Source: Elusimicrobia bacterium GWA2_62_23 (GTDB lineage Bacteria > Elusimicrobiota > Elusimicrobia > Elusimicrobiales > UBA9959). Taken from it: a stretch of DNA of 64,000 nt. Below the pieces are notes generated by a model. It was not told the DNA's origin. It was given only the letters and a program-made list of their open reading frames with translations, and searched no databases. The DNA lies in contig MGTV01000038.1 in NCBI GenBank assembly GCA_001799635.1, positions 2,376 through 66,375 of the forward strand, in the 5' to 3' direction. Position 1 is the stretch's first letter. Every line of letters starts with the position of its first letter. The position numbers were made by a program, and so were the translations under genes. Of this stretch, positions 29,649 to 54,218 are shown in pieces.

Positions 29649-29689
29649 ATATGACGCGATAACAGGCGGTGCCGGTTAAGGGTCCATAA

Positions 29690-29799: not shown

Positions 29800-29808
29800 T
29801 ACAGGGAT

Positions 29809-33533: not shown

Positions 33534-33556
33534 ATGTTCCTCCGGGAACGCCTTAA

Positions 33557-35176: not shown

Positions 35177-35295
35177 GCTATAATTATAGAAGAGGCGTGC
35201 GACCAAAATATTACAAAGAGATTTCGGTTTAACGCCGGAGAATCCACAATTCCGTAATAAAATAGTCACAATTGAAAAGTAGAATTGACTTGTAT

Positions 35296-35688
35296 ATGAG
35301 ACAAGCGCGTGCCCTGCTCCTGGCGGCCGCGGCGCTCCTGGCGCCGGGTTTCGCCGCGTCCTCCCCGTCGGGGCTGGGACTATCGATAGCCATGACACGC
35401 ATGGTCACCCCCAACCATGACGGCTTCAATGACACTTTTATTTTCCGCTGCTACAACCCGCGGGACTCGGCCATAGAAGCGAAGATCTTCGACATCTCCG
35501 GCCGCGAAGTGGCGCAGATGAGACTGAAGCAGCGGTCCACGGCCGCCTCGGTGTCGCCCAGCGCTTCCGGGGAATACTACGACCTGGAATGGGACCCCTC
35601 TTCAGGGCACATTCCCGGCGGCGTCTACATCTATCAGATCAGGTTGGAAACCAAGGTGTATAAGGGAACAATAACCGTAATAAGATGA
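35296..35688 (+). CDS. small secreted protein consisting only of a signal peptide plus a T9SS type-B (CHU_C-like) sorting domain
   Basis: 130 aa from the first ATG (TTG at 35272 is an alternative start): MRQARALLLAAAALLAPGFAA, then VTPNHDGFNDTFIF...KIFDISGREVAQM...WDPSSGHIPGGVYIYQIRLETKVYKGTITVIR. This is paralogous to the C-terminus of the divergent FN3 protein. ATGA overlap with the next gene. Confidence 0.7.
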   Translation: MRQARALLLAAAALLAPGFAASSPSGLGLSIAMTRMVTPNHDGFNDTFIFRCYNPRDSAIEAKIFDISGREVAQMRLKQRSTAASVSPSASGEYYDLEWDPSSGHIPGGVYIYQIRLETKVYKGTITVIR

Positions 35689-37667
35689 TTATGAACTCCC
35701 TGAAGAAAGACATCAAACTCCTGGCCGCGGCCGCGCTCCTGCTCGCGGGGGGAAACCTGCCGGCCTTCGCGGCCTTCGAGGACCTCGGCTTCGGGGCCAG
35801 GGGCCCCGGCATGGGCGACGCCTTCACGGGCGTGGCGGACGACATCTCTTCCATTTACTACAACCCGGCCGGCCTCTCGGCCATAGAGCGTCCCAAAGCC
35901 ATAGCGGCGCACTCCATGTTCTACAGCGGGCTCAGCGACGGGTCCAACCTGGGCCTCAGCGCGGCGGCCTTCGCCGTTCCGCTCTCCAACGGCCGCGGCG
36001 GCACCATCGGCGGCCTCTGGCACCAGTTCTCGCTCTCCGGCGTTTATTCCGAGAAGACCGCCCAGGTCTCCTGGGGCTACCGCTTCGACAGGCGCTCCCG
36101 GTACGAAAAGTTTTCCGTCGGCGCGTCGCTGAAATACCTTTCGCACGGCTTTACCCGCCTGGACGAGACCTACAACGCCGTGGAAGCCGGCCTGCTGCAG
36201 AACGGCAATACCGACCCGGTACTGGCCGGCGCCAATTCCCGGGCCGCCCTGGACGCCGACGTGGGCGCCCTTTACCGGCTCACCAAGCGCTGGACCCTGG
36301 GCGCGGCCCTCCTTAACGCTATGCAGGCCAACGTGGCCTTCAGCAGCGGCGACACGGACAAGATCCCCATGAAAACCAGGCTGGGCGCCTCCTACAAAAG
36401 CCTGTGGCTGGTGCTGGCCGCCGACGCCAGGATACAGAAAGCCCCGGACGGCAAGACCGACAAGCAGTTCATTTTCGCGGCGGAAAAGGTGTTCCCCAGC
36501 CTCGACCGCGGCGACGTGGGCGTGCGCGCCTCGCTCGGCGCCGGTGACCGCGAATTCAAGCAGGCCACCGCCGGCCTCTCCTACAAGATCCAGAAGATAC
36601 AGCTGGACTACGGCTTTTCCCTGCCTATCGGCACGGTCAAGGAGACCGCGGGCAACCACAAGGTGGCCCTTACCTACCATTTCGGTTCGGCCACCCAGAG
36701 CGAGATCGCCGAGGCCGAACTGCTGGAACAGTACAAGCGCCTGCGCGAGGCCAAGGACTACAAGAGCCCGCGCGAAACGGCCAGCCTCAACGACCCGCGC
36801 CTGGCCGACGTGAAGGAGCTCATAAAGGCGGAGAATTATTACGGCGCCAACAAGCTGCTGCTGGAGCGGGCCAACGAACTGCTGCCCGACTCCTCGGTGG
36901 TGGGGCTCACCAAGCGCCTCTCCACGGTGTCGGCTTTCTACCCGTCGCTGGCCGTGGAAGGCCGGCAGAAGAACCGCTGGGAGCAGCTCCTGAGCGGCGG
37001 CGTGAAGGATTTCCTCAACGGCCAGGACCGCCGCGCCATGAAGCAGCTCGCCTACGCGCAGAGCCTCAACCAGCAGGACTCCGCGCTGTCCAATTTCCTC
37101 GACCGCATAGGCGAGATCACGCGCGTCACGCCTGACCGCGTGCCGGCCGACTTCAGCCGCGGCTGGGTGGAGTACAAGCTGACCGAATCCGACGAGTTGT
37201 ACACCAAGAAACGCTACTCGGAGGCGCTGCGCAAGCTCGACGAAATGCTGGAGCTGGAGCCCAACGAACTTATCGGTCTCAAAAAGAGCGGTTCCTGCAA
37301 CTATATGCTGGGCAGCTACGCCAGGGCCGCCTACGACTGGAACAAGGCCTCCAAGCTGGAGAGCGACCCGCTGGAGAAGGCGAAGCTCTCCAAGATGATA
37401 GAGGAAGCCCGCCTGAAGCAGGGCAAGGCCGCCACCTGGCAGCCGCCCGTCAACGGCGCGGCCGTCCCCGGCGTGGAAGAGAGAGAGGAGACCAAGGCGG
37501 AGAAGGACGCCCGGGCGATAGAGAAGCTCTACCAGCTGGGCGCGGACTACTACGCCAAGGGCGAGTACGGCAAGGCGGCGGACACTTTCCGCAAGATCCT
37601 TACCATAGACCCGCAGAACACGCAGGCCAAGAAGGCCCTGGAGCGCATAATCCGCCTGTCGCGCTAG
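35685..37667 (+). CDS. outer-membrane beta-barrel (PorV/PorQ/FadL-like N-terminal half) fused to C-terminal TPR repeats
   Basis: 660 aa. Signal peptide (KLLAAAALLLAGGNLPAFAAF). GARGPGMGDAFTGVADDISSIYYNPAGL motif characteristic of PorV/PorQ/UPF0164-type barrels. Alternating beta-strand pattern to about residue 340 (ending ...HKVALTYHF). After that the sequence is helical and TPR-like (YGKAADTFRKILTIDPQNTQAKKALERI). Confidence 0.65.
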   Translation: MIMNSLKKDIKLLAAAALLLAGGNLPAFAAFEDLGFGARGPGMGDAFTGVADDISSIYYNPAGLSAIERPKAIAAHSMFYSGLSDGSNLGLSAAAFAVPLSNGRGGTIGGLWHQFSLSGVYSEKTAQVSWGYRFDRRSRYEKFSVGASLKYLSHGFTRLDETYNAVEAGLLQNGNTDPVLAGANSRAALDADVGALYRLTKRWTLGAALLNAMQANVAFSSGDTDKIPMKTRLGASYKSLWLVLAADARIQKAPDGKTDKQFIFAAEKVFPSLDRGDVGVRASLGAGDREFKQATAGLSYKIQKIQLDYGFSLPIGTVKETAGNHKVALTYHFGSATQSEIAEAELLEQYKRLREAKDYKSPRETASLNDPRLADVKELIKAENYYGANKLLLERANELLPDSSVVGLTKRLSTVSAFYPSLAVEGRQKNRWEQLLSGGVKDFLNGQDRRAMKQLAYAQSLNQQDSALSNFLDRIGEITRVTPDRVPADFSRGWVEYKLTESDELYTKKRYSEALRKLDEMLELEPNELIGLKKSGSCNYMLGSYARAAYDWNKASKLESDPLEKAKLSKMIEEARLKQGKAATWQPPVNGAAVPGVEEREETKAEKDARAIEKLYQLGADYYAKGEYGKAADTFRKILTIDPQNTQAKKALERIIRLSR

Positions 37668-37701
37668 CGCGCGGGGCGGGAGGGGGCGGGCGGCAGGCTA
37701 T

Positions 37702-39015
37702 ATGAAGCTTTTCCACAAGTTCAGCGCGGCGCTCACGGCCGCGGCCCTGGCCGCGGCTTTGCTGCTGAGCGGCATCTTCCTCAAGTTCCAGGAGCGCACC
37801 GTGCTCCGGGCGCAGCAGGCGCGGCTGCAGGCCATGGAACAGTCCGTGCTGGCCATGCTCGGCGAGGCCGAGCTGGCGGGCGACCCCCTGATGGCGGTGG
37901 ATTATCTTTCCGGCCTCTGTTTTTCAAGGCCGGAGATCCGCTCCTGCCGGTTGGACATCGGCCGGGGCATGGCCCCGGTGAAACTCCCCAAGGTCAAAGT
38001 TCCCGCACGCTCCGACGTTCCTCTTTCCAGGCGGCTGAGCGGCAAAAAGTACCGCGCGGAGCTGGATTTTTCGGCCGCGGCCCTGGACCGGGAGCGCAAG
38101 GAGGCCCTCTCCGGGGTCTGGCGAAACCTGGCCGCCGCTTTCCTGGCGGCCATGGCCGTGGCGGCCCTGCTCGCCCTGCTGCTGGCGCGCCGGCTCACCA
38201 GGCGCCTGCGGCGCCTCTCGGCCGAAGCGGCGGCGCTGGGAGAGGGGAAGTTCGGGGTAAAGACCGAAGTCTCCGGCTCGGACGAGGTGGCGGAGCTGGC
38301 GGGGGCCTTCAACGCCATGTCCGAGCGTCTGCTGGAACTGGAGACCATGAAGAAGAATTTCACGGCCTCGGTCACGCACGAACTGCGCTCGCCGCTGGGC
38401 GTCATAGAGACCTACGCCGCCATGCTCATCAAGGAAGAGGACCGCTTCACCCCCGACGATATTTCCGTCTTCAGGCGCATAAAGGAGAACGCCGGGCGCC
38501 TGGCCAATTTCGTCACGGCCATGCTGGACCTGGCCAAGATAGAGCGCGGCAAGATGGAACTGCGCCCGGCGAAAGAAGACCCCCTGGCGCTGGTCAGGGA
38601 CGCGGTTGATTTCCTCAAGCCGAAAGCCGACGAAAAAAACGTAGCCCTGGCCGCCCTGACCCCGCCGGGCCCGGCCGCGGCGACGCTCGACCGGGAGCTC
38701 GTGACCCACGCGCTCACCAATCTCATTTCCAACGCCATAAAATTCACGCCCGAAGGCGGCAAGGTCTTTGTGCGCGCCTCGCTCACCCAAAAAGTCCTCC
38801 GCGTGGAAGTGGAGGACACCGGCCCCGGCGTGAAACCCGGAGAAGCCGAAAAGATCTTTACCCCGTATTCCCAGGGCTCGGCGGCCCCCGGCCACGGCGG
38901 CACCGGCCTCGGCCTGGCGCTGTCCAAGGCCATCATAGAGCTGCACAAAGGCCGCATAGGCTGCGGCGCCGCCCCTGGCGGCGGCGCCCTCTTCTGGTTC
39001 GAGCTGCCGGTGTGA
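37702..39015 (+). CDS. membrane sensor histidine kinase (2 TM, HAMP, HisKA, HATPase_c)
   Basis: 437 aa. H-box FTASVTHELRSPLGVI, N-box LISNAIKFTPEGG, G-boxes EDTGPGV / GGTGLGLA. Confidence 0.85.
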   Translation: MKLFHKFSAALTAAALAAALLLSGIFLKFQERTVLRAQQARLQAMEQSVLAMLGEAELAGDPLMAVDYLSGLCFSRPEIRSCRLDIGRGMAPVKLPKVKVPARSDVPLSRRLSGKKYRAELDFSAAALDRERKEALSGVWRNLAAAFLAAMAVAALLALLLARRLTRRLRRLSAEAAALGEGKFGVKTEVSGSDEVAELAGAFNAMSERLLELETMKKNFTASVTHELRSPLGVIETYAAMLIKEEDRFTPDDISVFRRIKENAGRLANFVTAMLDLAKIERGKMELRPAKEDPLALVRDAVDFLKPKADEKNVALAALTPPGPAAATLDRELVTHALTNLISNAIKFTPEGGKVFVRASLTQKVLRVEVEDTGPGVKPGEAEKIFTPYSQGSAAPGHGGTGLGLALSKAIIELHKGRIGCGAAPGGGALFWFELPV

Positions 39016-39029
39016 CGAAGAGGGGCGAC

Positions 39030-39145
39030 GGGGGTATGGGTTCGGAGGGGCGTCGCGGAGGCCGAGGCTTGCGCAAGCGACGAGGCCGAGCGACGAGCGG
39101 CGAGAACGGTGTTCGAGACCGCGTACCCGACGGGCCCATACCCCC
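39030..39145 (+). repeat. structured intergenic repeat, family B copy 1
   Basis: Closing stem GGGGGTATGGG (39030-39040) / CCCATACCCCC (39135-39145). The core CGGAGGCCGAGGCTTGCGCAAGCGACGAGGCCGAG is shared with the element at 58288-58414 in the opposite orientation. Confidence 0.65.
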
Positions 39146-39220
39146 GGCGCACCGACACCCGATATACACCGGCCTGTAATAACTTTGTAACGTGCTTTAT
39201 ATAGAATAAGAGTACGGATT

Positions 39221-40648
39221 ATGAAAAAACTGCTGACCCTTTTCGCCGCCATCGCCTTCTTCACGGCCGCCGCCCGCGCCCAGGAGGCCGTTGAGCCTTC
39301 GCCCAGCGCCCAGGCCGCCGAACTCTCCTCCCGGATGCAGGAAGACGTCTCCCGCCTGCTCGAACAGCTCGTAGGCCGCGGCCGCGCCCGCTCCTTCGTG
39401 GCCGTGGAGGGGGAAATAGTTCTCAAGAGCAAGCTCGAATCCGGCGCGCCCTCCGAAGACACCCTCACCCTGCCCGGCTACGCCGCCGTCAACATCCTCG
39501 AGAAGACCGGCGAGTACCTCAAACAGAAGCGCGAAGAAAGCCAGCGCACCAGCGAATTCAAGGTCAAGAAACTTTCCGTCTCGCTCGTTTTCGACCGCAC
39601 CGTGCCCGAGGCGCGCGTCAACGCCATCAAGCTCATGATCTCCGACGTGCTGCGCCTGAGCGAGGCCCGCGGCGACAGCATCATCACCGCCCGCGCCGAG
39701 ATGCAGCCCTGGTGGCGCAGCGCCCTCGAGTCGCCCGAAGTGCGCCCGGTGCTCCTGATGTCCGCCTTCGGCCTCGTGGCCCTGATGGCCCTGCTGGTCA
39801 TAGGCTACATGCTGGCCTCGCGCCTGATGTCCGGTTTTGTGGATTACGCCCGCCTCAACGCCCCCGCCCAGGCCATTGGCGGCGGCGCCGGCGGCTACGG
39901 CGGCGCCGGCGGGGAAGAAGGCGGCGAGATGGGCGACATCATAGACGTGGAAGCCCGGGCCGCGGCCGGCGGTGCCCTGCTGGAAGCCGGTTCCGCTTTC
40001 GAATTCCTGGAGAAGTTGCCACCTGCCGAGGCCGCCGAACTGCTGGCGGAGGCGCCCGAAGAGGACGCTGCCATCATCATCGCCAACCTGGCCGACCGCA
40101 AACCCCACATTTCCTCCAAGATCCTGCTCGCCCTGCCGCCCTCGAAAAAGCAGGCGGTCAGCGCCCGCATGCTGGGCCTGAAGCAGGCCGAACCGGAGAA
40201 GATCTACGAGATAGAGAGCGACCTGCGCTCTCGCCTGGAGAAGAGCCTGCGCGGAGCCGAAAAACTCGGCCGCCTGCTTTCCCTGGTGGACGAATCGGCC
40301 CGGGCCGAGATCATGGAAACGCTCGCCCATGCAGACCCCAAAGGCTCGGAAGAAATGCGCCGCAAGATGGTAACTTTCGACGATATCTGCCGCCTGGACG
40401 ACAAGAACCTGCGGCCGCTCGTAGTCACCCTGCCCTACGTCGACTGGGCCGCCGCCCTCGCCGGCGCCGGCGAGACCGCCGTGGGCAACGTCACGAAGCT
40501 TCTGCCCGAGGACGTGCGCCTGATAGTGAAGGACCTGCTGGTGAACCGCCCCGAGGAGGAGAAGATCATCGGGGCCCGGGCCAAGATAATTTCCGCCGCC
40601 ATAGAAATGAACGCCAAGGGCCGCATAGTGATCAAGGAGGGCGTGTGA
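39221..40648 (+). CDS. FliF-like (signal peptide + periplasmic ring-motif + TM) / FliG-like (cytoplasmic rotor domain) fusion protein
   Basis: 475 aa. Signal peptide MKKLLTLFAAIAFFTAAARAQ. Periplasmic segment with a YscJ/FliF-like pattern (KKLSVSLVFDRTVPEARVNAIKLMISDVLRL). TM helix VRPVLLMSAFGLVALMALLVIGYML, then a Gly-rich linker. The C-terminal region aligns residue-for-residue with the E. coli FliG C-domain (MVTFDDICRLDDKNLRPLV....WAAALAGAGE......DLLVNRP...GRIVI versus MFVFENLVDLDDRSIQRLL....LLIALKGAEP......DLANRGP...GEMVI). Confidence 0.7.
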   Translation: MKKLLTLFAAIAFFTAAARAQEAVEPSPSAQAAELSSRMQEDVSRLLEQLVGRGRARSFVAVEGEIVLKSKLESGAPSEDTLTLPGYAAVNILEKTGEYLKQKREESQRTSEFKVKKLSVSLVFDRTVPEARVNAIKLMISDVLRLSEARGDSIITARAEMQPWWRSALESPEVRPVLLMSAFGLVALMALLVIGYMLASRLMSGFVDYARLNAPAQAIGGGAGGYGGAGGEEGGEMGDIIDVEARAAAGGALLEAGSAFEFLEKLPPAEAAELLAEAPEEDAAIIIANLADRKPHISSKILLALPPSKKQAVSARMLGLKQAEPEKIYEIESDLRSRLEKSLRGAEKLGRLLSLVDESARAEIMETLAHADPKGSEEMRRKMVTFDDICRLDDKNLRPLVVTLPYVDWAAALAGAGETAVGNVTKLLPEDVRLIVKDLLVNRPEEEKIIGARAKIISAAIEMNAKGRIVIKEGV

Positions 40649-42654
40649 GCAGCCCTTCCTCCGACGCCTTCCACACCGAGCTCGACTACCTCTGGGACGC
40701 CGTAAAAACGGCCCAGGAGGCGGAGGCCGTGTCGGCGCAGGAGCGGTCAAAAGCCAAAGAAGGCCTGGAGCACGCCTCCTCCCGGGTAATGCACCTCGAG
40801 AACGAGCTGGCCAAAGGCCTGGAGCGCGAAAGGGCCCTGCGCGCCGAAACCGAAAAATTCAAGAGAGAGGCCGGGCGCCTGGCCGCCGAGCTTGGGAAGG
40901 CGGCGCATCAGGCCGAAACCATCCACGCCGCCGCGGAATTGAGCGCCGGCTTCGAAAAGCGCCTGATAAAGAAAGACGGCGAGACCGCCATGCTGGACGC
41001 CGAAGTGGCCCGCCTGCAGGCCGAAACTTCCGCCCTGCGCGAGACCCTTAAAGGCCGTGACGCCGCGGTGGCCGCCCTGAAGAAAAAACTGGAAGGCCTG
41101 GCCGCCCTGCCCGAGATCGCGGGGATAATTTCGCAGGACTCGGCCGGATCCGGGCAGCCCGGCTCCGTCTACCTGCACCTGCTGGAACGCCTCGAAAAAG
41201 AAAAAGCCATGGCCTCGGGGGCCGAAGCTTCGCTGGCTGCCGCCGAAAAAGAACTTGAAGCGGCCCGAGCCGCCGCTGCAGCCGCAGAACATGAAACCGC
41301 CGGGCTGCGCTCCGCGCTGAGCCTCAAGTCCCGCGACCTGGAGAACCTGCAGGCCGCTATCCGGGAAGCCGACGGCAGGCACGCGGTTTCAGCCGCCGAG
41401 CGCGGCGCGCTGGAGGCCAGGGCGGCCGAACTCAAGGCCGCGCTGGGAGAGAGAGAAAGCGCCCTGGAGCGCGCCGCCGCCCAAGCCGCGGGGCTGCGCC
41501 GGGAACTGGACGCCGCCAGGGCCGAAACCGCCCGGGTGCGCGACGAAGCCGCGGCCCAGGCGCTGCGCACCGAGGAGCAGAAAGGCAATTTTTCGGGAGC
41601 GGTGGCCCAGGTCTTCGACCTGCAGAAGCGCGCCGCCGCCCTGAGGTCGGAACTGACGGCGGAAAAAGAGCGCAGCGCGGCGCTGGCCGCGGACCTTTCC
41701 GCCCGGGCCGCTGACCTGGAGAAGGTCAACGGGCTGCTGCGGGACGCCAAGAACGGCCTGGCCCAGGAAAAAGAGACGGGGCGCCGCGCCGGCGTCCGGA
41801 TCAAGGCCCTGGAAGCCGAGATCGAGGACCTGAAAGCCAAGGTGGCCGCCGCCGGAGAATACTCGGCGAAACTACTGCGCGCCGTGCAGGAGCGCGACCT
41901 GGCCCTGGGCGCCGTAAAGGCGGACCTGCGCAAGACCGAAGCCTTGGAGATGGAGAACGAGGACCTGCGCCGCAAGAACGTGAAGTTCAGCGGTCTCCTG
42001 CGCCGCGAGCAGTCCGATTTCACCGCCCGGGTCATAACCGCCCTGGAGCGCGCCGCCAAAGACCTCAAGACTTTCAACCTCCGGGTCCCCGCCGCGGAGC
42101 GCAAGGGCATAGAGCCCGCGCTCAAGAACCTGCTGGCTTCCGTCAACCTGATGAAAGGCTGGCAGGAGTATATGGACCCCGAGACCCCGGAACTGGCCGA
42201 CACGGACCTGGCCGGGTTCTTCTCCGGCGAAGCCGGGAAATGGGAACGCGCCTTCAAGCAGCGCAAACTGTCCATCTCCTACGCGGTCGCCACGCCGCGC
42301 ATGCGCGCGAGGCTCCACCCGGAGAGCATGAAGATGCTCTTCTACCACCTCGCCAAGAACGCCTACGAACACCTGCCTTCAGGCGGCAGCCTGCGGGTGA
42401 CGCTGAAAGCGTCGGAGGACGGCCGCCAGGCCGTGCTCTCCTTCGAGGACACCGGTCCCGGTTTCCAGCAGGAGACCCTGGCGAAACTCTTCGCGCCGTT
42501 CAACACCTCCGAGAAGGGGAAGGCCGGCATAGGCCTGGCCGTCTGCGCCCGCATAGCCGAAAAGCACGGCGGCACGCTGAACGCGGCGAACAGGAAAGAC
42601 AGGGGAACTCTGGTGGAAGTGAGGCTGCCGCTAGGCAGCGAAGTTAAAGCTTGA
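40645..42654 (+). CDS. long coiled-coil protein with C-terminal histidine-kinase-type ATPase domain, no recognisable H-box
   Basis: Starts at GTG 40645 (AAGGAGG 5 nt upstream, GTGTGA overlap with the upstream stop). The 980-aa track ORF is an out-of-frame 5-prime extension. About 470 aa are Ala/Glu/Arg/Leu heptad-rich coiled coil. The tail has an N-box LAKNAYEHLPSGG and G-boxes EDTGPGF / GIGLAV. The DHp position reads FTARVITALERAAKDL, with no His. Confidence 0.7.
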   Translation: MSSPSSDAFHTELDYLWDAVKTAQEAEAVSAQERSKAKEGLEHASSRVMHLENELAKGLERERALRAETEKFKREAGRLAAELGKAAHQAETIHAAAELSAGFEKRLIKKDGETAMLDAEVARLQAETSALRETLKGRDAAVAALKKKLEGLAALPEIAGIISQDSAGSGQPGSVYLHLLERLEKEKAMASGAEASLAAAEKELEAARAAAAAAEHETAGLRSALSLKSRDLENLQAAIREADGRHAVSAAERGALEARAAELKAALGERESALERAAAQAAGLRRELDAARAETARVRDEAAAQALRTEEQKGNFSGAVAQVFDLQKRAAALRSELTAEKERSAALAADLSARAADLEKVNGLLRDAKNGLAQEKETGRRAGVRIKALEAEIEDLKAKVAAAGEYSAKLLRAVQERDLALGAVKADLRKTEALEMENEDLRRKNVKFSGLLRREQSDFTARVITALERAAKDLKTFNLRVPAAERKGIEPALKNLLASVNLMKGWQEYMDPETPELADTDLAGFFSGEAGKWERAFKQRKLSISYAVATPRMRARLHPESMKMLFYHLAKNAYEHLPSGGSLRVTLKASEDGRQAVLSFEDTGPGFQQETLAKLFAPFNTSEKGKAGIGLAVCARIAEKHGGTLNAANRKDRGTLVEVRLPLGSEVKA

Positions 42655-43324
42655 AGATATAACCCAGACCGAAAACGGTCCGCAGTTTGGACCCGAATGA
42701 ACGCCCCAGGCGGCGGCGGAGCGCCTCTATGCGCTTGTCCACGGCCCTGGCCCCGGCGGAGGAGTCCTGCCGCCAGACCTGCTCCAGCAGCATGCTGCGC
42801 GACACCAGCCGGCCCTGGTTGCGCAGGAAATAGAGCAGCAGGTCGAACTCCAGGGCGGTAAGCTTGAGCGCGGAGCCGCCCACCCGCGCCGTGCGCGCCT
42901 CGGGGGAAACGCGCAGGGCCCCGAAGGCGTACTCGGCCGGCTTTTCGGCGGCGGCGCGCCGCCCGCCGCGGCCCAGCAGGTTGAGCACCCTGGCCCGGAA
43001 GAGGGCGGGGTCGGGGGGAAAGGGGAAATACTCGTCGGCCCCGTTGTCGAAGCAGACGGCGGCGGCGGCGGGGGAATACTGACCGCCTCCGGTCAGGACC
43101 AGCAGGGAGCCTGCGGTGCGGGGCGCCCCGCGCAGCACGGCTACGAGGTCGCGGCCGCTCATGTCGGGCAGGCCCGCGTCTATGACGGCCAGGCCGTCCC
43201 CGCGCCAGCTTTTGAGGAACCTGCCGGCCGAAGGGTAGGAACGCACGCGCAGGCCCGTAAGCGAGGCGCGCGCGAAAGCGGCCACTCCTGGGTCGGCGGT
43301 AACGCAGTGGACAACCTGGTTCAT
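42644..43324 (-). CDS. OmpR/PhoB-type winged-helix response regulator (receiver domain divergent)
   Basis: 226 aa. C-terminal LTALEFDLLLYFLRNQGRLVSRSMLLEQVW...VDKRIEALRRRLG...LRTVFGLGYIF. N-terminal receiver-like VIDAGLPDMSGRDLV. Its 3-prime end overlaps the convergent gene by 11 nt. Confidence 0.75.
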   Translation of the reverse strand: MNQVVHCVTADPGVAAFARASLTGLRVRSYPSAGRFLKSWRGDGLAVIDAGLPDMSGRDLVAVLRGAPRTAGSLLVLTGGGQYSPAAAAVCFDNGADEYFPFPPDPALFRARVLNLLGRGGRRAAAEKPAEYAFGALRVSPEARTARVGGSALKLTALEFDLLLYFLRNQGRLVSRSMLLEQVWRQDSSAGARAVDKRIEALRRRLGRSFGSKLRTVFGLGYIFKL

Positions 43325-43698
43325 GCGGGGAAAACGGCGGCCTTGATGCGCCGGAGCAGTTCGTCCGGGTCGAAGGGCTTAAGGACGTAGCCCGCGGCGC
43401 CCAGCTTGAGCCCCTCGGAGACCATGTCCACCTCGGAGCGGACCGTGAAGAAGATTATCGGGACGCCGGCCAGCGCGGGCGTCCTGCGGATGCGGCGGGC
43501 GGCCTCGAAACCGCTGATATCGGGCAGGCCCACGTCCAGCAGGATCATGTCGGGCTTCTCGGCGGAGGCGAGGGCCACGCCCTCCAGGGCGGTGGGGGCG
43601 GTGACCACGGCGCAGCCGGCCTTCGCCGCGATGCGCGCCGCTATGCGCAGGTAATCCGGCTCGTCGTCCACTACCAGGACCTTGGGGCGGGGCTTCAT
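43321..43698 (-). CDS. single-domain CheY-like response regulator
   Basis: 125 aa: KVLVVDDEPD, MILLDVGLPDISG, ...YVLKPFD. Confidence 0.85.
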   Translation of the reverse strand: MKPRPKVLVVDDEPDYLRIAARIAAKAGCAVVTAPTALEGVALASAEKPDMILLDVGLPDISGFEAARRIRRTPALAGVPIIFFTVRSEVDMVSEGLKLGAAGYVLKPFDPDELLRRIKAAVFPA

Positions 43699-44069
43699 TT
43701 ACGGGGGAGGAGGGCTTCCACTTTCTTCTGCAGGAAGGAAAGTTCCACGGTCTTGCTCATGAACTCGCGGCAGTTGGTCTCCTGCCGGAAGAGCTCGCTC
43801 ATGTTCTTGTCGAAGAAGGAGCCGGTTATGATCAGCACGGGGATATTGCGCGTGTCGTCGTCGGTCTGGAGGTTCCTGACCACCTCTATGCCGCCGATGT
43901 CCGGCATCATGACGTCGCAGAGGATGACGTCGGGCTTGATGGCCTTGGCCTTGGCTATGCCCTCGCGGCCGTCGCCGGCTATCTGGACGTTAAAGCCCAG
44001 GTCCGTGAAATAATCGGACACCATCGTGCGGAATTCCACGTTATCGTCCACAATAAGCATCAGGCTCAT
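43695..44069 (-). CDS. single-domain CheY-like response regulator
   Basis: 124 aa: MLIVDDNVEF, VILCDVMMPDIGG, PVLIITGS. Confidence 0.85.
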   Translation of the reverse strand: MSLMLIVDDNVEFRTMVSDYFTDLGFNVQIAGDGREGIAKAKAIKPDVILCDVMMPDIGGIEVVRNLQTDDDTRNIPVLIITGSFFDKNMSELFRQETNCREFMSKTVELSFLQKKVEALLPRK

Positions 44070-44123
44070 TTAAAGCTCCCTAATCCCTGTTTCAGTAGAG
44101 TATATTGTAAATCCCGGCCGTTT

Positions 44124-46244
44124 TCAAGACGGGCTCGGCACCGCGGGCGGCGGGGCGGCCATCTCCTTGGAAATGGTGAAGATGAACTTGCTGCCCTTGC
44201 CCACTTCGGACTCCACCCAGATGTCGCCCTTGTGCAGCTGCACCGTCATCTGGCACATCGCCAGGCCCAGGCCGAAACCCTGGCTCTTATGTTCCTCCAT
44301 CTGGGAGTATTTCTCGAAGATCTCCTTGCGCTTGTTCTCCGGGATGCCGGGGCCGGTGTCCTGCACCGCGAAGAAAACCTTCTGCGCGTCCTCCCAGGCG
44401 GACAGGGTGATAGTGCCGCCGCTGGGGGTGAACTTCAGGGAGTTGCCCATCAGGTTGGTGATGACGCGCTCGAGCAGGATGGGGTCCGCCGTGAACGCGA
44501 TCCTGGAGGGAGGCGCGGAAAGCAGGAGCTTTATGCCCTTGGGGCCGGCCACCGGTTCGTGGTTCTCCTTGACCCGCGTGAGCAGGGCCTCGGCGTCCAG
44601 GGAATCCAGCTGCAGCGTCATGTTGCCGCGCTCCAGTTTGGTGGTGTTGAGGATGTCGTCTATCATGCCGCGCAGCCGGCGCGAGGAGTAGAGCATGCTC
44701 TGCAGGTACTTGTCGGTGGACGGGGACGCCGGGATCTTCTTCATCAACAGCTCGGTGTAGCCCTGCAGCGTGGAAAGGGGCGCGCGCATGTCGTGCGTGA
44801 TCATGTGGAAGAAATCTTCCTTGGCCTTCTCTATCTCCTTCTCGCTCGTGATGTCGCGGATGATGATGACGCGGCCGGGGCGCTTGAGCGTAGCGAGCAG
44901 GAACTGGTTGGAGATGATCCGGAAGCTCTTGGTCACGGTACTGTTCTCGTTGACTATAGGGGCGTCCACCTCCGCCTTCAGGTACTTGTCCTTCAAGGCC
45001 AGCATTTCGGTGAGCGAGTTGAAGAAAGCCTCGTTCTTCACCGAGCGGGGCACGGCCACGTCGGCGGAGATCTTGGGGATACCCAGGAGCTTCAGGGCCG
45101 TATTATTGGAATAGATCAGCGAGCCGCGGTCGTCCACCAGGAGCACGCCGTCGGAAATGGTGTCTATGAGGGCCTGGGCCTTGCCCTTCTCTTCCACGAT
45201 CTGGTTCAGCTGGAAGGCGCGGTAGGCCTGCAGCTCCAGCATGAGCCGGTTGAGGATGCCCACCAGGCTCTTGATCTCGGGCCAGCCCTCCTGCGGAATG
45301 ACCGAATCCAGGTGCTGGGTCTTGAGGAACTGCTTGACGCCGCTGACCATGTTGTTGACGGGGCGGATGATGCGGTTGGAGATCAGGAAGACCACCAGCA
45401 TCGTCACGCCGAAGATACCGACGGCCAGCAGGGAGAAGACCAGGATGGACTTGCGCTGCTTGCCGTACAGCTCCTCTTCCGACTGCACGGAGACGGCGGC
45501 CCAGTCCAGCTTGTCGATGGCCGCGTAGGCGCCGGCGTACTCCTCCTTGCTGAAGAGGAATTTCGCGATAGTGCCGGTGCGGCCGCCGCTGCGGAAGACT
45601 TTCCTGAGCAGGTCGGGCTCGTAGCCCATCCCTTTCATGTCCTGGCAGGGCAGGGGGCGGCCCTGTCCATCGGAGATGAACACGCGGCCGGTCCGGCCGG
45701 TGCGCTGCGAGTTTATTTTACCCAGCAGCTTGTCCAGCGTGAAATGGAAGACCACCACCCGCTCGTCCACCAGCGGGTAGGCGATGGGGAAATAGGCCTG
45801 GTCCTTGACGCACAGCACCTCGCCGGACGTCACTATCCCGGAGTCCTTGGCCTGCGCTATCAGCTTATCCTGGAAAAGGGCCAGGGACTTCGGCTCCTTC
45901 ACCTTCTCGCTCTGCAGGAAGAACAGTTCTTTCCCGTCCTTGCCCACGAGGGACAGGGACATGATGTCGGAATTTATGCGCGCCGCCTGGTGGATCACCT
46001 CGGCCTCGGAGACCTTCTTGCCGCGCAGGGGGTTCTCGAACTCGTAGAGGAAGGCCAGGTTGCGGTTGGTATTGAGGAACCACTCGTCCACGTTGGCCGC
46101 GGACAGGCGCGACAGGCCCTGGTGCAGCTCGAAGTAGCTGGTCACCGAGGAATTATACTGGTAGATGTTCCAGCCCACCGTCAGCAAGAGCGGCAGCACC
46201 GCTATCGCCAGCAGGATCAGCAGGAACCTCGTAGTCAGTTTCAT
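44124..46244 (-). CDS. sensor histidine kinase (periplasmic Cache-like domain, TM, HAMP, PAS, HisKA, HATPase_c)
   Basis: 706 aa. N-terminal TM helix, a roughly 250-aa extracytoplasmic domain, and a second TM helix (ILVFSLLAVGIFGVTMLVVFLI). H-box FFHMITHDMRAPLSTL. G-boxes QDTGPGI / GFGLGLA. Confidence 0.85.
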   Translation of the reverse strand: MKLTTRFLLILLAIAVLPLLLTVGWNIYQYNSSVTSYFELHQGLSRLSAANVDEWFLNTNRNLAFLYEFENPLRGKKVSEAEVIHQAARINSDIMSLSLVGKDGKELFFLQSEKVKEPKSLALFQDKLIAQAKDSGIVTSGEVLCVKDQAYFPIAYPLVDERVVVFHFTLDKLLGKINSQRTGRTGRVFISDGQGRPLPCQDMKGMGYEPDLLRKVFRSGGRTGTIAKFLFSKEEYAGAYAAIDKLDWAAVSVQSEEELYGKQRKSILVFSLLAVGIFGVTMLVVFLISNRIIRPVNNMVSGVKQFLKTQHLDSVIPQEGWPEIKSLVGILNRLMLELQAYRAFQLNQIVEEKGKAQALIDTISDGVLLVDDRGSLIYSNNTALKLLGIPKISADVAVPRSVKNEAFFNSLTEMLALKDKYLKAEVDAPIVNENSTVTKSFRIISNQFLLATLKRPGRVIIIRDITSEKEIEKAKEDFFHMITHDMRAPLSTLQGYTELLMKKIPASPSTDKYLQSMLYSSRRLRGMIDDILNTTKLERGNMTLQLDSLDAEALLTRVKENHEPVAGPKGIKLLLSAPPSRIAFTADPILLERVITNLMGNSLKFTPSGGTITLSAWEDAQKVFFAVQDTGPGIPENKRKEIFEKYSQMEEHKSQGFGLGLAMCQMTVQLHKGDIWVESEVGKGSKFIFTISKEMAAPPPAVPSPS

Positions 46245-46250
46245 AGGCCG

Positions 46251-46880
46251 TTAGATCTCGTGCCTGACTATGTTTATCTCTATGCGCCGGTTCTTGGACC
46301 GCCCTTCGGGGGTGTCGTTGGTCTGTACCGGCTTGAACTCGCCGTAGCCCACGGCGGAAAGCTTTTCGGGCGCGACGCCTTCTTTTATGAAGAACTGCAG
46401 CACCGTGAAGGCCCGGGCGGAGGAGAGCTCCCAGTTGGAGCGGAAGCGGGTGCCGCGGCGGCCGAGCGGCCGGTTGTCGGTGTGTCCCTCTATCTGGATG
46501 GGGTTGGGCAGGTCCTTGAAGACCGCGGTGAGGCGGCGCAGGTGGGGGTAGGAGGACTCCTTCAGGATATCGCTGCCGGGGGCGAAAAGTATGGGGTCGG
46601 AGAAATTGATGCTGATCTTGTTGGCGGAGATCTCCACCTGGGCTATCTGCTGGATGCCGTGTTTGGAGAACAGCGTGCTGGCTATCTGGGTGTCTTTGCC
46701 GAAGGTCTCTTCCAGGGCCTTCGCCGAGAACTGGGTGGTTATGCTCTTGGAGCTGTAGAAAGCGAACAGGATCATGAAAAAGATCATGAGGTAGCTCATC
46801 ATGTCGCCGTAGGTGATGGCCCACAGGGCGCCGCGGTTAAGCTCGTTCTCCAGTTCGTCTTCGCGTTCGTAGAAGCGCAT
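46251..46880 (-). CDS. motB: MotB-type stator subunit (TM with conserved Asp + OmpA-like peptidoglycan-binding domain)
   Basis: 209 aa. WAITYGDMMSYLMIFFMILFA carries the proton-binding Asp context of MotB. The C-terminus reads IEGHTDNRPL...SNWELSSARA...NRRIEI. Confidence 0.8.
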   Translation of the reverse strand: MRFYEREDELENELNRGALWAITYGDMMSYLMIFFMILFAFYSSKSITTQFSAKALEETFGKDTQIASTLFSKHGIQQIAQVEISANKISINFSDPILFAPGSDILKESSYPHLRRLTAVFKDLPNPIQIEGHTDNRPLGRRGTRFRSNWELSSARAFTVLQFFIKEGVAPEKLSAVGYGEFKPVQTNDTPEGRSKNRRIEINIVRHEI

Positions 46881-46890
46881 AAATCGTTCG

Positions 46891-47673
46891 TTAAGCCCTC
46901 GCCGCGGGGCCGGAGGGTTTGGAGCCCTCGAGCAGCTGGTAGCCGCGCAGGTGCATGTCCACCAGGTGGGGGGTCTTGCCGCTCATGATGTCTATGACGC
47001 CTTCCAGGATGAGCTGCAGCACCAGGGTCTCCTCCACGGCGCGCAGGCGGACTTTGTTGGCCACCGGCACGAAGATGAGGTTGGAGAGCGCGATACCGAA
47101 GAAAGCCGAACTGATGGCCACGGCCATGGAACGGCCGATCATGGTGGGGTCGGAAATATTGCTCAGGGTCTGGATGATGCCGAAGAGGGTACCGATCAGG
47201 CCGAACATAGGGGAGAGCACGCCGGCCGTACGGTAGAAGTTGGAATCCTCCTGGATGTCCAGGCGGCGGCGGCGGATCTCCTCTTCCAGGATGGCCCGGG
47301 TCTCGCGGGACTCGGCACTGATCATGGCCACGCCGACGGCGCGCTTGAGGAAACCGCCGGCGAAAGCCGGGTCGGTATTGGAGAGGGCCATGATGCCGCC
47401 CTGCTTCTGGGCGGTCTCGGCCATGCTCACCAGCATGCGCACCGCCGCGTCCACGGAGGGGGTCTTGGGATTGCCGAAGATATCGAAGAAGGCCTTGAGC
47501 CCGGTCACGAACCGGCGGAAAGAGGTGTTGATGACGGTCGCGGCCAGGGTGCCGCCCAGCACGATGATAATGCCGTGGAGGTCCATGAGCTTGTCGGCGA
47601 TGCCCGAGGAAAAAATACCCCAGCCCATTACGGCCCCGCCCAGCAGGAAGCCCACGATCGTCATCATATCCAT
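46891..47673 (-). CDS. motA: MotA/PomA-type stator subunit (MotA/TolQ/ExbB proton-channel family)
   Basis: 260 aa, 4 TM, with a large cytoplasmic loop between TM2 and TM3. Motifs SPMFGLIGTLFGI and AVAISSAFFGIALSNLIFVPVANKV. Paired with motB. Confidence 0.75.
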   Translation of the reverse strand: MDMMTIVGFLLGGAVMGWGIFSSGIADKLMDLHGIIIVLGGTLAATVINTSFRRFVTGLKAFFDIFGNPKTPSVDAAVRMLVSMAETAQKQGGIMALSNTDPAFAGGFLKRAVGVAMISAESRETRAILEEEIRRRRLDIQEDSNFYRTAGVLSPMFGLIGTLFGIIQTLSNISDPTMIGRSMAVAISSAFFGIALSNLIFVPVANKVRLRAVEETLVLQLILEGVIDIMSGKTPHLVDMHLRGYQLLEGSKPSGPAARA

Positions 47674-54217: not shown

Positions 54218-54218
54218 C

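Follow-up and report, generated by a model that had tools for sequence, protein, structure and literature searches.

Flagellar FliF has two transmembrane helices and the domains RBM1, RBM2 and RBM3, of which RBM1 and RBM2 house the export gate. FliG binds the FliF tail with its N-terminal domain and FliM with the EHPQR motif of its middle domain, and in the classical stator-rotor charge pair R90/E98 of E. coli MotA or R88/K89/E96 of PomA face R281/D288/D289 of FliG. The Agl-Glt machinery of Myxococcus and Bdellovibrio combines a non-flagellar proton motor with TPR proteins, outer-membrane barrels, a long coiled-coil cytoplasmic protein and surface adhesion, and Zorya (ZorAB) uses a MotAB-derived 5:2 motor outside motility. 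In Bacteroidota gliding and T9SS, a proton-driven inner-membrane motor of the MotAB/ExbBD superfamily, GldL/GldM with a periplasmic shaft, occurs together with PorV/PorP-type 14-strand barrels, type-B CTD proteins and a large surface adhesin, SprB. Type-B CTD proteins are known to be anchored by PorP-like barrels encoded adjacently (Gorasia 2022, PMC9143113). A natural FliF-FliG fusion is found in the non-flagellated Chlamydiaceae (Bergeron 2016, PeerJ, PMC4768692); it is ∼330 aa long, consists of RBM2, one RBM-like domain and only a FliG_M-like region, lacks the FliG_C torque domain, is not associated with MotAB, and has been proposed to have an injectisome role.

According to Uzun et al. (bioRxiv 10.1101/2022.07.08.499144), whose Elusimicrobiota data set includes the genome analyzed here (GCA_001799635.1), most free-living members of this phylum have no structural flagellar genes but do have homologues of motAB and fliG whose role is "unclear", and a few have complete flagellar sets. 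Flagellar genes were also described as absent in Elusimicrobia by Doud et al. (PMC7031533). These orphan fliG and motAB genes have been noted as enigmatic, and we found in the literature neither a description of the gene cluster presented below nor a report of a T9SS in Elusimicrobiota.

A conserved 13-gene cluster

The window, i.e., the whole 64-kb stretch of DNA that was analyzed, comes from a groundwater Elusimicrobia genome. An earlier note had drawn attention to a rotor- and stator-like gene neighborhood at 39221-47673, but the conserved unit is larger: it comprises 13 genes at 29820-47673 and additionally includes a PorV/FadL-type barrel-TPR protein, two type-B-CTD proteins, a 1237-aa fibre-like protein and a HAMP kinase. 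Its features, with the evidence for each in brackets, are:

29820-33533, minus strand: fibre-like secreted surface protein, 1237 aa (weak family matches, sequence features)
33557-35176, minus strand: fn3 protein, 539 aa, with a C-terminal T9SS type-B sorting domain, CHU_C (Pfam)
35296-35688, plus strand: CTD-only mini-protein, 130 aa, signal peptide and CTD-type sorting domain (CHU_C 1.7e-8)
35685-37667, plus strand: outer-membrane barrel and TPR protein, 660 aa (Pfam, NCBIfam, AF2/Foldseek)
37702-39015, plus strand: sensor histidine kinase (HAMP kinase), 437 aa (Pfam)
39178-39215, plus strand: conserved promoter/operator-like element AATAACTTTGTAAC...TATAGAAT, just upstream of the rotor gene (sequence conservation)
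39221-40648, plus strand: FliF/FliG fusion, rotor candidate, 475 aa (Pfam, TIGR00207, AF2 and Foldseek)
40645-42654, plus strand: coiled-coil HK-type ATPase, 669 aa, cytoplasmic (Pfam and profile matches)
42644-43324, minus strand: OmpR/PhoB-type DNA-binding regulator, 226 aa (Trans_reg_C 2.9e-17)
43321-43698, minus strand: single-domain receiver, 125 aa (Response_reg 7e-29)
43695-44069, minus strand: single-domain receiver, 124 aa (Response_reg 4.7e-20)
44124-46244, minus strand: Cache sensor kinase, 706 aa, with dCache, PAS, HisKA and HATPase_c (Pfam and profile matches)
46251-46880, minus strand: MotB, 209 aa (Pfam MotB_plug 7e-10 and OmpA 6e-21; MotD/MotB/MotS models)
46891-47673, minus strand: MotA/PomA-type stator A subunit, 260 aa (profiles and alignment to solved structures)

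A lack of conservation among relatives would, according to the earlier note, have counted against its inference. Instead, 45 Elusimicrobia loci of a species-representative collection (one genome per species) share the 13 genes in synteny, and all 13 ORFs are intact wherever a tabulated locus spans their position. In comparisons with the three closest relatives, dN/dS was 0.07-0.30 for every cluster gene, indicative of purifying selection. Gene order within Elusimicrobiales is weaker evidence, because the housekeeping flanks (ribBA upstream, acyl-CoA dehydrogenase or purB/purA downstream) are often syntenic too.

The set is also found in relatives that are only 25-30% identical, where gene order and flanking genes differ. 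One such locus (L007) encodes an fn3 protein, a small ORF, a TPR protein, a histidine kinase (HK), the rotor protein, the coiled-coil ATPase, a further HK, MotB, MotA, an OmpR-type regulator and a receiver; another (L058) encodes fn3, TPR, rotor, MotA and MotB proteins. Two more (L008 and L057) combine a giant 2800-aa surface protein and a TPR protein with an HK-rotor fusion, MotA and MotB. In these fusions (P0172 and P0189; HisKA, HATPase_c, YscJ_FliF_C, FliG_M and FliG_C) the kinase sits at the N-terminus of the rotor protein; by the Rosetta-stone argument, such a fusion speaks for a physical association of the two. In L008, the module is followed by a CHASE2-cyclase. In one locus (L034, UBA11697) the cluster is kept and motAB have been cleanly lost, and motAB were not seen within 10 kb in two distant loci (L009 and L056).

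The FliF/FliG fusion and the MotA/MotB proteins

The rotor candidate, which had been recognized as a FliF-like/FliG-like fusion, is indeed encoded at 39221-40648. Its layout comprises a signal peptide (residues 1-21), an RBM3-like periplasmic domain (∼25-170), a TM helix (∼175-205), a Gly-rich linker, FliG_M (∼255-345) and FliG_C with the torque helix (∼367-471). Pfam assigns FliG_C to residues 367-471 (E=9e-15, above cutoff) and FliG_M at 8e-7; YscJ_FliF_C (1.6e-4) remains just under its own cutoff, and TIGR00207 fliG matches residues 255-474 at 4e-15, far below the equivalog cutoff. Profile alignment to T. maritima FliG gave 2.4e-22. In Foldseek searches of the PDB, the AF2 model (pLDDT 72) matched the FliG M and C domains (E=3e-9), and isolated FliG_C chains were aligned with TM scores of 0.85-0.88 and an rmsd of 1.7-1.9 Å; the MotAB-bound FliG_C of 8UCS superposes on that of the fusion at 1.9 Å. 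FliF RBM3 rings were found at ∼1e-3, and RBM3/S-ring chains were the only part of FliF that was matched. The earlier note had considered that the C-terminal half might turn out to be MgtE-N-like. Profile and predicted fold both point to FliG rather than MgtE, which was matched only at E 0.6.

Several flagellar elements are missing from the fusion. RBM1 and RBM2 are absent, leaving a single RBM3-like domain of ∼145 aa between the signal peptide and the one TM helix. There is no separate FliG_N domain, since the FliG_N match (0.0065) falls over the FliG_M region, and EHPQR is not kept, with EHPQ aligning to E-E-D-A. The hinge motif (L/M)xTF(E/D)D(I/L) and the charged torque-helix positions R433, K437 and D/E438 are retained across 125 representatives of the rotor family. 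Among 116 close homologues, all attached organism names are Elusimicrobia or Elusimicrobiota, and the best 150 representatives of 50%-identity clusters are mostly full-length matches of the same architecture. The dN/dS of the fusion gene is 0.14-0.19. A Roadblock/MglB-like gene lies near one distant member of the family. Nearly all Elusimicrobiales-type loci that were inspected have the core AAYAACTTTGTAAY of the element at 39178-39215 ahead of the rotor gene, and the surrounding spacer is not conserved; the element is promoter- or operator-like, a function that is only inferred.

The ATPase gene lies directly downstream of the rotor gene in all loci compared. In the window, the junction reads ...AAGGAGGGCGTGTGAGC, with the GTG start at 40645, the rotor stop TGA at 40646-40648 and an AAGGAGG ribosome-binding site 4 nt upstream, so that the GTGTGA translational coupling proposed before is supported by start, stop and ribosome-binding site. 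The protein consists of a ∼470-aa coiled coil, a degenerate DHp-like segment and an intact HATPase_c domain (Pfam, E=8e-21) with conserved N, G1, F and G2 boxes. A conserved phospho-acceptor His was not found in it, the position being R/H/T/Q/E across orthologues. Its stop at 42654 overlaps the convergent OmpR-type gene (42644-43324) by 11 nt. Both this overlap and the order of the minus-strand operon, motA-motB-kinase-REC-REC-OmpR, agree with the earlier description.

MotA and MotB, the latter noted before for its YGDMM context, also held up. MotA aligned end to end with solved MotA (9lu9, 3e-35) and PomA (3.5e-32) structures (residues 1-245/250), its cytoplasmic torque-generating region is complete, and it matched flagellar MotA/PomA/MotP models at 1e-33 to 1e-45 versus 1e-5 or worse for TolQ/ExbB. 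MotB carries a plug, a TM helix with the channel residue Asp26 ("WAITYGDMM") and an OmpA-type peptidoglycan-binding domain. Together they satisfy the features of flagellar-type stators, the "FIT" class of PMC12505986, which for MotA include four TM helices and an expanded cytoplasmic torque-generating region. The stator-rotor charge pair is only partly kept: the charged loop of MotA has Q-K at the PomA R88/K89 positions and S at E96, with K and S as equivalents of MotA R90/E98, and on the fusion side D431 corresponds to FliG R281, with R433 two residues later, K437 and D438. A Margulisiibacteriota protein encoded beside a flagellar operon deviates similarly; hence, this feature is not discriminating.

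Signalling and outer-membrane components

The 437-aa kinase has two TM helices, a small periplasmic loop, HAMP, HisKA with its His, and HATPase_c. For the second sensor kinase, described before as Cache/HAMP/PAS, the dCache, PAS and kinase domains were recovered, but HAMP was not called by Pfam in the window copy and matched weakly in orthologues only. The two small proteins designated CheY-like are receivers, with D8/D9, D52, T82 and K105 in the 124-aa protein and an acidic pocket, D55, T85 and K107 in the 125-aa protein. The CheY model matched the 124-aa receiver partially and below cutoff (7e-12), and both are generic single-domain receivers, not demonstrably CheY. CheA and CheW were absent from the window ORFs scanned with Pfam. 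The 125-aa receiver (79-92% identity in closer relatives, 40-53% in the most distant Elusimicrobiales-type loci) and MotB (72-94%) are the two best-conserved cluster genes. Two-component signatures are satisfied by HisKA in the HAMP and Cache kinases and by full D/D/T/K sets in both small receivers; the exceptions are the coiled-coil ATPase without its conserved His and the OmpR-type regulator, whose receiver is degenerate (Response_reg only 0.0046, below cutoff).

The 660-aa protein has a 14-strand PorV/PorP/FadL-type barrel (residues ∼71-333) followed by a ∼320-aa TPR solenoid. Pfam detected PorP_SprF above cutoff (1.1e-9) and TPR families, and NCBIfam PorV_fam matched below cutoff (8.5e-15). 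The AF2 model (pLDDT 80, 14 strands and 14 helices) retrieved FadL at 8e-9 and the T9SS protein PorV (6h3i_F) at 1.7e-7 with the best TMq, and some orthologues are named "PorP/SprF" by NCBI. Judged from the topology of the modelled barrel, the TPR arm would be periplasmic. The barrel gene start overlaps the stop of the mini-protein gene (ATGA). The mini-protein itself stays below the TIGR04131 cutoff (23 bits); it is conserved at 45-77% identity, and a gene call exists in L005. The 539-aa protein, conserved in the loci, matches CHU_C (6.6e-9), fn3 (3e-8) and TIGR04131 (35.7 bits versus a cutoff of 35). Thus, type-B CTD proteins are encoded beside a PorP/SprF-like barrel, which satisfies the T9SS cargo feature. 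The 1237-aa protein is the most divergent member of the cluster (orthologues 37-66% identical, at the same position in all long loci; dN/dS 0.26-0.30). Its family matches are weak (Chlorovi_GP_rpt; Bdello_MAT_N 2.7e-4), its N-terminus resembles tail-fibre or "mosaic adhesive trimer" heads and its C-terminal part has YadA-like Gly/Asn repeats, features from which we infer a putative fibre or adhesin. The adjoining adhesin, CTD and barrel genes noticed before are real members of the same conserved unit, which makes their link to the rotor stronger than first proposed.

Pfam detected no hook, rod, export-gate, FliM/N, flagellin or chemotaxis families among 59 window ORFs, a few ORFs of ∼70-240 aa being outside the scan. 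Within this scope, the statement that the 64 kb contain no other flagellar genes is correct. Likewise, FliM/FliN, FlhA/B, FliPQR, FliI, rod, hook and filament genes were absent from the 20-kb neighborhoods of the orthologous loci read, and GldK/L/M/N (PorK/L/M/N), SprA/Sov and PorU from the window proteins scanned, a search limited to the window. Genome-wide absence of flagellar genes in GCA_001799635.1 rests on the literature only. In Margulisiibacteriota, one contig encodes a 480-aa protein with the architecture of the fusion, together with MotA and MotB, directly before fliK-flgE-fliM-fliN-fliPQR-flhB-flhA; the closest relative of this protein (41% identity) is in the fn3/TPR/MotAB context of L058, without flagellar genes.

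Possible roles of the cluster

With the flagellar motor core the cluster shares FliG M and C domains, torque helix, MFxF-type hinge, a FliF RBM3-like domain, a full-length PomA-like MotA and a MotB with plug, channel Asp and OmpA-type peptidoglycan-binding domain. In contrast to that core, its FliF and FliG are joined in a single chain that has a cleavable signal peptide and one TM helix, it lacks RBM1/RBM2, FliG_N, EHPQR, FliM/N, export gate, rod, hook, filament and chemotaxis genes, and its partners are an outer-membrane barrel-TPR protein, CTD proteins, a fibre protein and two-component proteins. The chlamydial protein is likewise a natural fusion of a shortened FliF with a FliG-derived cytoplasmic domain in non-flagellated bacteria, whereas the Elusimicrobia fusion has RBM3, FliG_M and FliG_C and travels with MotAB. 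Inner-membrane motor class, barrel type, type-B CTD proteins and a large surface adhesin as likely cargo are common to Bacteroidota gliding and T9SS, but here the motor is a true MotAB with a putative FliG ring, GldK/N, SprA/Sov and PorU are missing from the window, and the barrel has a 320-aa TPR arm. The cluster and Agl-Glt have in common the combination of a non-flagellar proton motor with TPR, outer-membrane barrel, coiled-coil cytoplasmic and surface-adhesion proteins; Agl, however, is TolQR/ExbBD-like (generic-ion-transporter class of PMC12505986) and lacks FliG, and no Glt homologues were detected in the cluster.

The retention of FliF/FliG and MotA/MotB in a conserved cluster without flagellum parts suggests that rotor and stator serve a job other than swimming. 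From the observed domain identities, predicted folds, intact stator signatures, co-conservation with purifying selection, rearranged recurrence and kinase-rotor fusion, we infer, with a probability of about 0.5, that the 13-gene module is a rotor-stator device that works independently of a flagellum, is driven by protons, acts on an outer-membrane/adhesin complex and is controlled by two-component signalling. The FliF(RBM3)-TM-FliG(M+C) fusion would oligomerize into an inner-membrane ring with RBM3 in the periplasm and the torque helices of FliG in the cytoplasm, and peptidoglycan-anchored MotA5B2-type stators would push on FliG_C as in the flagellar motor. The periplasmic face of the rotor may engage the long TPR arm of the PorV/PorP-type barrel, in place of rod, hook and filament, and the barrel, working with the fibre-like adhesin, would hold both surface proteins that carry a type-B CTD, namely the fn3 protein and the mini-protein. 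Torque or conformational work at the inner membrane would then move, tension, expose or release the surface adhesin complex, an output whose functional counterpart in Bacteroidota gliding and T9SS is the action of GldLM on SprF/SprB. Control or read-out would fall to the HAMP kinase, the Cache kinase, the His-less coiled-coil ATPase beneath the ring, the two receivers and the OmpR-type regulator. Ring formation, the MotA-FliG and RBM3-TPR contacts and the nature of the output are inferences, and no ring, no rotation and no contact of RBM3 with the TPR arm has been shown by experiment or structure.

It is also conceivable, if rather unlikely, that the module is a mechanosensor or signalling device, in which kinases read the state of a load- or PMF-sensitive rotor-stator and act via the receivers and the OmpR-type regulator on gene expression, e.g., of surface or adhesion programmes. 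Flagellar stators are load sensors used in surface sensing, and six of the 13 genes encode three kinase-type proteins and three receivers. Moreover, in L008 and L057 kinase and rotor form a single fused protein, translation of the His-less ATPase is coupled to that of the rotor protein, the rotor gene is preceded by a strongly conserved operator-like repeat, and the CHASE2-cyclase of L008 points the same way. What such a device leaves unexplained are the PorV-type barrel-TPR and CTD or giant surface proteins beside the rotor in every non-flagellar context, and the purifying selection that still acts on the torque helix and on all of the stator machinery. One reading does not rule out the other. 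The many signalling genes fit a sensory role no less than a mechanical one.

That the fusion replaces FliF and FliG in a true flagellum, with MotAB as its stators and the other genes elsewhere in the genome, appears improbable. The Margulisiibacteriota gene order and the few Elusimicrobiota with complete flagellar sets (10.1101/2022.07.08.499144) would permit it, as our scan covered the window only, but the fusion lacks RBM1/RBM2, FliG_N and EHPQR, its partners in 45 species-representative loci and four distant contexts are outer-membrane barrel, CTD and adhesin genes, the Margulisiibacteriota protein has its closest relative outside any flagellar context, and most free-living Elusimicrobiota have motAB and fliG without structural flagellar genes (10.1101/2022.07.08.499144, PMC7031533). 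Very little speaks for a chance neighborhood, in which unrelated rotor/stator and adhesin/barrel genes are linked merely by the general synteny of close genomes: housekeeping flanks are indeed often conserved within Elusimicrobiales, yet the association survives rearrangement and full flank replacement in L007, L008, L057 and L058, and overlapping or coupled junctions and the kinase-rotor fusion also argue against it. We give hardly any credence to a decaying, functionless flagellar remnant or a Zorya-type anti-phage system. Some non-motile bacteria do carry orphan flagellar genes as remnants (PMC12199754), but intact ORFs and the low dN/dS values do not fit decay; and although MotB shows generic similarity to ZorB models, PADLOC returned no match for MotA, rotor protein, barrel or 1237-aa protein, ZorA, ZorC and ZorD were not matched, no ZorE is present, MotA is PomA-like over its full length without the long ZorA tail, and the cluster, which is chromosomal and syntenic, occurs throughout the phylum instead of in patches.

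If the rotor-stator device acting on surface adhesins is the correct reading, the cluster could, as a more tentative possibility, represent an unrecognized class of envelope-spanning rotary machine, in which a FliF-RBM3/FliG ring driven by MotAB, without type III export apparatus or axial structure, would act through a TPR-armed barrel on adhesins. Such a machine, either exapted from a lost flagellum or a surviving pre-flagellar module, may power gliding-like adhesin movement or PMF-dependent deployment in Elusimicrobiota and their relatives.

Fold and motifs of the rotor fusion and its partners

The open reading frames recorded in the earlier note agree with the sequence, among them the following three:

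39221-40648 (+): rotor fusion, FliF(RBM3)-TM-FliG(M+C), 475 aa
40645-42654 (+): coiled-coil ATPase, 669 aa
42644-43324 (-): OmpR-type regulator

The 475-aa product consists of a cleavable-looking signal peptide, a ~145-aa periplasmic domain with a sub-threshold match to YscJ_FliF_C, one TM helix, a Gly-rich linker, and a C-terminal half made up of FliG_M (8e-7) and FliG_C (9e-15). An AF2 model based on 20 family members (pLDDT 72) was compared with the PDB by Foldseek. Its top matches were C-ring FliG (3e-9) and the T. maritima FliG MC crystal structure, while isolated FliG_C chains, including the MotAB-bound chain of 8UCS, aligned with TM-scores of 0.85-0.88; the N-terminal domain resembled FliF RBM3/S-ring chains at about 1e-3. 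Among solved structures, the rotor family profile matched FliG alone (2.4e-22). The C-terminal domain had been called FliG-like, with an MgtE-N-like identity named as the finding that would refute this. Since the FliG matches are strong in both profile and predicted fold and MgtE cytosolic domains reach an E-value of only 0.6 in the same PDB search, the refutation fails and the MgtE-N identity was rejected.

The FliG hinge (canonical MFxF) is retained in the family as (L/M)x(T)F(E/D)D(I/L), and the torque-helix residues R433, K/R437 and E/D/Q438 are kept in most of 125 family representatives. Classical MotA/FliG charge pairs are only partially retained, and they are uninformative because a homologue from Margulisiibacteriota shows the same deviations (in this alignment, A3, the out-of-frame row of locus L010 is to be disregarded). 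Conservation exceeding anything in the FliG part is found in two periplasmic motifs, LPG (84-86) and RGD (150-152), which are nearly invariant (115-123 of the 125 representatives). LPG sits in a low-confidence loop of the model, and the roles of both motifs are unexplained.

Translational coupling of the rotor gene to the next gene was borne out: its stop codon overlaps a GTG start with AAGGAGG ahead. The 669-aa product has the composition described before, a coiled coil of ~470 aa and then HATPase_c. The phospho-acceptor position of its DHp region (residues ~470-500) is R in the window and H/T/Q/E, or also R, among orthologues, in which all ATP-binding boxes are conserved. Because a conserved His is missing and the ATP-binding boxes are intact, the protein is predicted to be a His-less kinase-like ATPase, either a pseudo-kinase or a trans-acting ATPase.

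Its gene indeed overlaps, by 11 nt at the 3′ ends, the minus-strand motA-motB-kinase-REC-REC-OmpR operon. In the OmpR-type regulator the receiver is degenerate (Pfam Response_reg, E of only 0.0046): by eye, it lacks the acidic pair at the N-terminus as well as the conserved Lys, and keeps the Asp of "VIDAGLPD". The window's MotA can be aligned, over its residues 1-245/250, with solved MotA (3e-35) and PomA (3.5e-32), and flagellar MotA/PomA/MotP models score 1e-33 to 1e-45 compared with 1e-5 or worse for TolQ/ExbB models. MotB carries the plug, an OmpA domain and the TM Asp (YGDMM) that had already been noted. Judged from sequence, the stator is thus a "flagellar ion transporter" rather than a generic one in the terms of PMC12505986.

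The 13-gene block and its surroundings

The genome (Elusimicrobia bacterium GWA2_62_23; GCA_001799635.1; GTDB family/genus UBA9959; groundwater origin) spans 2.98 Mb at about 90% completeness, and the window has a GC content of 60-68%. Its 475-aa rotor product shows 100% identity with the corresponding NCBI protein entry. Outside the cluster, the window encodes housekeeping functions, namely the nuo operon, plsX, fabG and rnc, acyl-CoA dehydrogenase with ETF, pgi, and a riboflavin operon preceded by an FMN riboswitch. Features of the cluster and its flanks are:

29687-29802 (-): FMN riboswitch (114.6 bits), upstream of the ribBA-ribH-ribD-ribE operon and directly beside the cluster
29820-47673: 13-gene block
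35210-35223 (-): weaker copy of the AAYAACTTTGTAAY core, two mismatches, ahead of the fn3-CTD gene
39028-39148 (+): very stable ~120-nt hairpin in the spacer between HAMP kinase and rotor genes
39178-39215 (+): candidate box with the 14-nt core AAYAACTTTGTAAY (AATAACTTTGTAAC box), and TATAGAAT/TATTAT 9-12 nt further on
52985-54683 (+): PAS kinase and receiver pair, downstream of the cluster and outside its conserved neighbourhood
56938-58278 (+): lone PilB/GspE-type secretion ATPase (T2SSE, 1e-109)

The last of these was considered as a partner of the cluster and rejected because the gene is absent from the conserved neighbourhood.

The block was delimited in two ways, from gene calls in other assemblies that encode the same protein and from tblastn searches of 54 loci with the window proteins as queries. 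The genes that the earlier note had listed are all part of it, and its extent proved larger than noted:

Genes 1-5: 1237-aa fibre-like surface protein; fn3 protein with type-B CTD; 130-aa CTD-only protein; PorP/SprF-type barrel with TPR; HAMP kinase
Genes 6-8: rotor fusion; coiled-coil ATPase; OmpR-type regulator
Genes 9-13: two receivers; Cache kinase; MotB; MotA

Scanning a collection with one genome per species yielded 45 distinct loci, whose labels read Elusimicrobia/Elusimicrobiota or just an unnamed "bacterium". The scan was seeded with the closer alignment A1, as the diversity of the family alignment A2 (43 sequences, 28% identity) was too great, and its reach is therefore limited to relatives at least about 45% identical. 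Conservation of the gene set, which had been proposed as a check, was found: the whole block is present in every locus long enough, with the exception of one species (UBA11697), where motA-motB are cleanly deleted without an assembly gap (L034:16900-17300) and the other 11 genes are kept. The promoter-like region before the neighbouring acyl-CoA dehydrogenase is still there. Within the block, conservation is highest for MotB and the 125-aa receiver.

The barrel protein model (pLDDT 80) comprises 14 strands and, after them, a TPR solenoid of 14 helices; Foldseek matched it to FadL (8e-9) and to the T9SS PorV chain of 6H3I (1.7e-7), the latter with the best query TM-score. Given the even strand number of this model, we infer that the TPR arm should be in the periplasm. 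For the fn3 protein, the type-B sorting-domain model reaches its curated threshold.

In nearly every Elusimicrobiales-type locus inspected, down to 45% protein identity, the AAYAACTTTGTAAY core recurs 30-45 nt ahead of the rotor gene, and the rest of the spacer around it is not conserved. Because it contains a GTAA...GTAA direct repeat with an 11-bp period, the element is a candidate OmpR-family box or unusual promoter. The hairpin (MFE −96 kcal/mol for a 210-nt stretch, z = −5.5) is unique in the window. Other species do not conserve it, and even in another assembly with an identical rotor protein it differs, by 54 nt in length.

Relatives beyond Elusimicrobiales

A search of 1.84 billion cluster representatives with the rotor profile gave 4202 matches at an E-value of 0.001 or better. 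The best 150 of these 4202 (all E < 1e-20) are mostly full-length proteins of 430-850 aa with the same RBM-TM-FliG_MC architecture, and the named examples come from Elusimicrobiota, one Margulisiibacteriota and one contig labelled "Thermoprotei archaeon" at NCBI. Since the latter, encoding a 705-aa member (P0216/P0272), is only 4.9 kb in length, it most likely represents a binning error and not an archaeal FliG.

Neighbourhoods of distant rotor homologues

L007: rotor P0144, ~30% identity; all functional classes present, order rearranged, flanks unrelated
L008 and L057: rotors P0172/P0268 and P0189; ~2800-aa surface protein, TPR protein, kinase-rotor fusion, MotA, MotB
L058: rotor P0195; fn3, TPR, rotor, MotA, MotB
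L009: rotor P0122; fn3/CTD protein, PorP-type barrel, kinases
L056:1-12019: rotor P0206, 672 aa; CTD proteins, two PorV-like barrels, TPR protein
L055:3096-14538 (Margulisiibacteriota, GCA_041650635.1): rotor P0197, 480 aa, RBM3-TM-FliG_MC; rotor-MotA-MotB trio right before a flagellar operon

The rotor proteins at L008:10001-12529 and L057:10001-12511 (836-842 aa) start with a complete HisKA/HATPase_c kinase followed by a second membrane pass, a fusion which speaks for a physical link between kinase and ring. Their ~2800-aa neighbour is an Ig/fn3 surface protein; at L008, the module is followed by a CHASE2-guanylate-cyclase. P0206 bears a TPR extension C-terminal to FliG_C, and lies close to two CHU_C/Por_Secre_tail proteins, one of them an S8 peptidase, with a Roadblock/LC7 (MglB-like) gene nearby. 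No motAB was found within 10 kb at L009 or L056. The recurrent core therefore comprises surface protein(s), the rotor fusion and a TPR protein, which may or may not come with a barrel; MotAB is usually also present, as is a kinase.

At L055 the flagellar operon reads fliK-flgE-fliM-fliN-fliPQR-flhB-flhA, the MotB has LysM in place of OmpA, and neither fliF nor fliG is seen as a separate gene. This rotor may be the minimal fused MS/C-ring of a real flagellum or belong to an adjacent independent module. A search from this protein returned a handful of relatives only, and its nearest relative, the L058 rotor (41% identity), has a non-flagellar context. The locus shows either the flagellar ancestry of the family or flagellar use in the Margulisiibacteriota lineage.

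Proposed working and meaning

Our analysis documents which parts are present, how they are predicted to fold and that they are inherited together under purifying selection, along with intact stator signatures and the kinase-rotor fusion; all mechanistic links between the parts are inferred from gene association only. We propose that the rotor fusion would form an inner-membrane ring whose FliG_C is acted on by PG-anchored MotAB units, and whose periplasmic RBM3 face would engage the TPR arm of the barrel. The barrel, in turn, would anchor the type-B-CTD proteins and work together with the fibre protein, so that proton flow would work on a surface adhesin complex, by analogy with GldLM acting via PorV/PorP-type barrels on SprB. 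Kinases, receivers and the coiled-coil ATPase may stand in for FliM/N and CheY as regulators.

The strongest competing explanation is that the same assembly has a sensory role. Specific results speak against each of four others. In the case of a hidden true flagellum, the FliM-binding EHPQR motif is not retained in the rotor family, a loss that fits the absence of FliM from the 64 kb analysed. Chance synteny is argued against by recurrence of the core in rearranged contexts. A pseudogenised remnant was rejected because each of the 13 genes has a dN/dS of 0.07-0.30 in comparisons with three relatives, and a Zorya system because the PADLOC search revealed neither ZorA nor any other Zorya part.

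In textbooks, FliG and flagellar-type MotAB are markers of the flagellum. Recent surveys regard flagellar-type stators as flagellum-specific (PMC12505986). Uzun et al. reported motAB and fliG homologues of unclear role in free-living Elusimicrobiota without flagellar structural genes, and called them "enigmatic" in non-flagellated, even magnetotactic, members (bioRxiv 10.1101/2022.07.08.499144). According to a survey from 2025, 11% of non-motile species have rotor proteins, and an alternative function was put forward as a possibility (PMC12199754). The non-flagellated Chlamydiaceae also have a natural FliF-FliG fusion, but with a FliG_M-like domain only and without MotAB (PMC4768692). The Elusimicrobia paper of Meheust et al. 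makes no statement on motility, and our literature search, including Elusimicrobia with T9SS and Elusimicrobium with MotA/FliG, found no prior description of the cluster, its PorP/CTD link or kinase-rotor fusions.

The cluster offers a concrete, testable answer with a defined parts list, including partners that we consider fusion-supported (kinase, TPR/barrel protein and CTD proteins). It occurs in 45 Elusimicrobia loci of the species-representative collection, and distant variants are found elsewhere. If the rotor-stator pair does drive an outer-membrane adhesin complex, this would be a new way to couple PMF to the cell surface, would bear on the origin or recycling of the flagellar motor, and would provide a candidate motility/adhesion system for a phylum whose free-living members are almost all uncultured.
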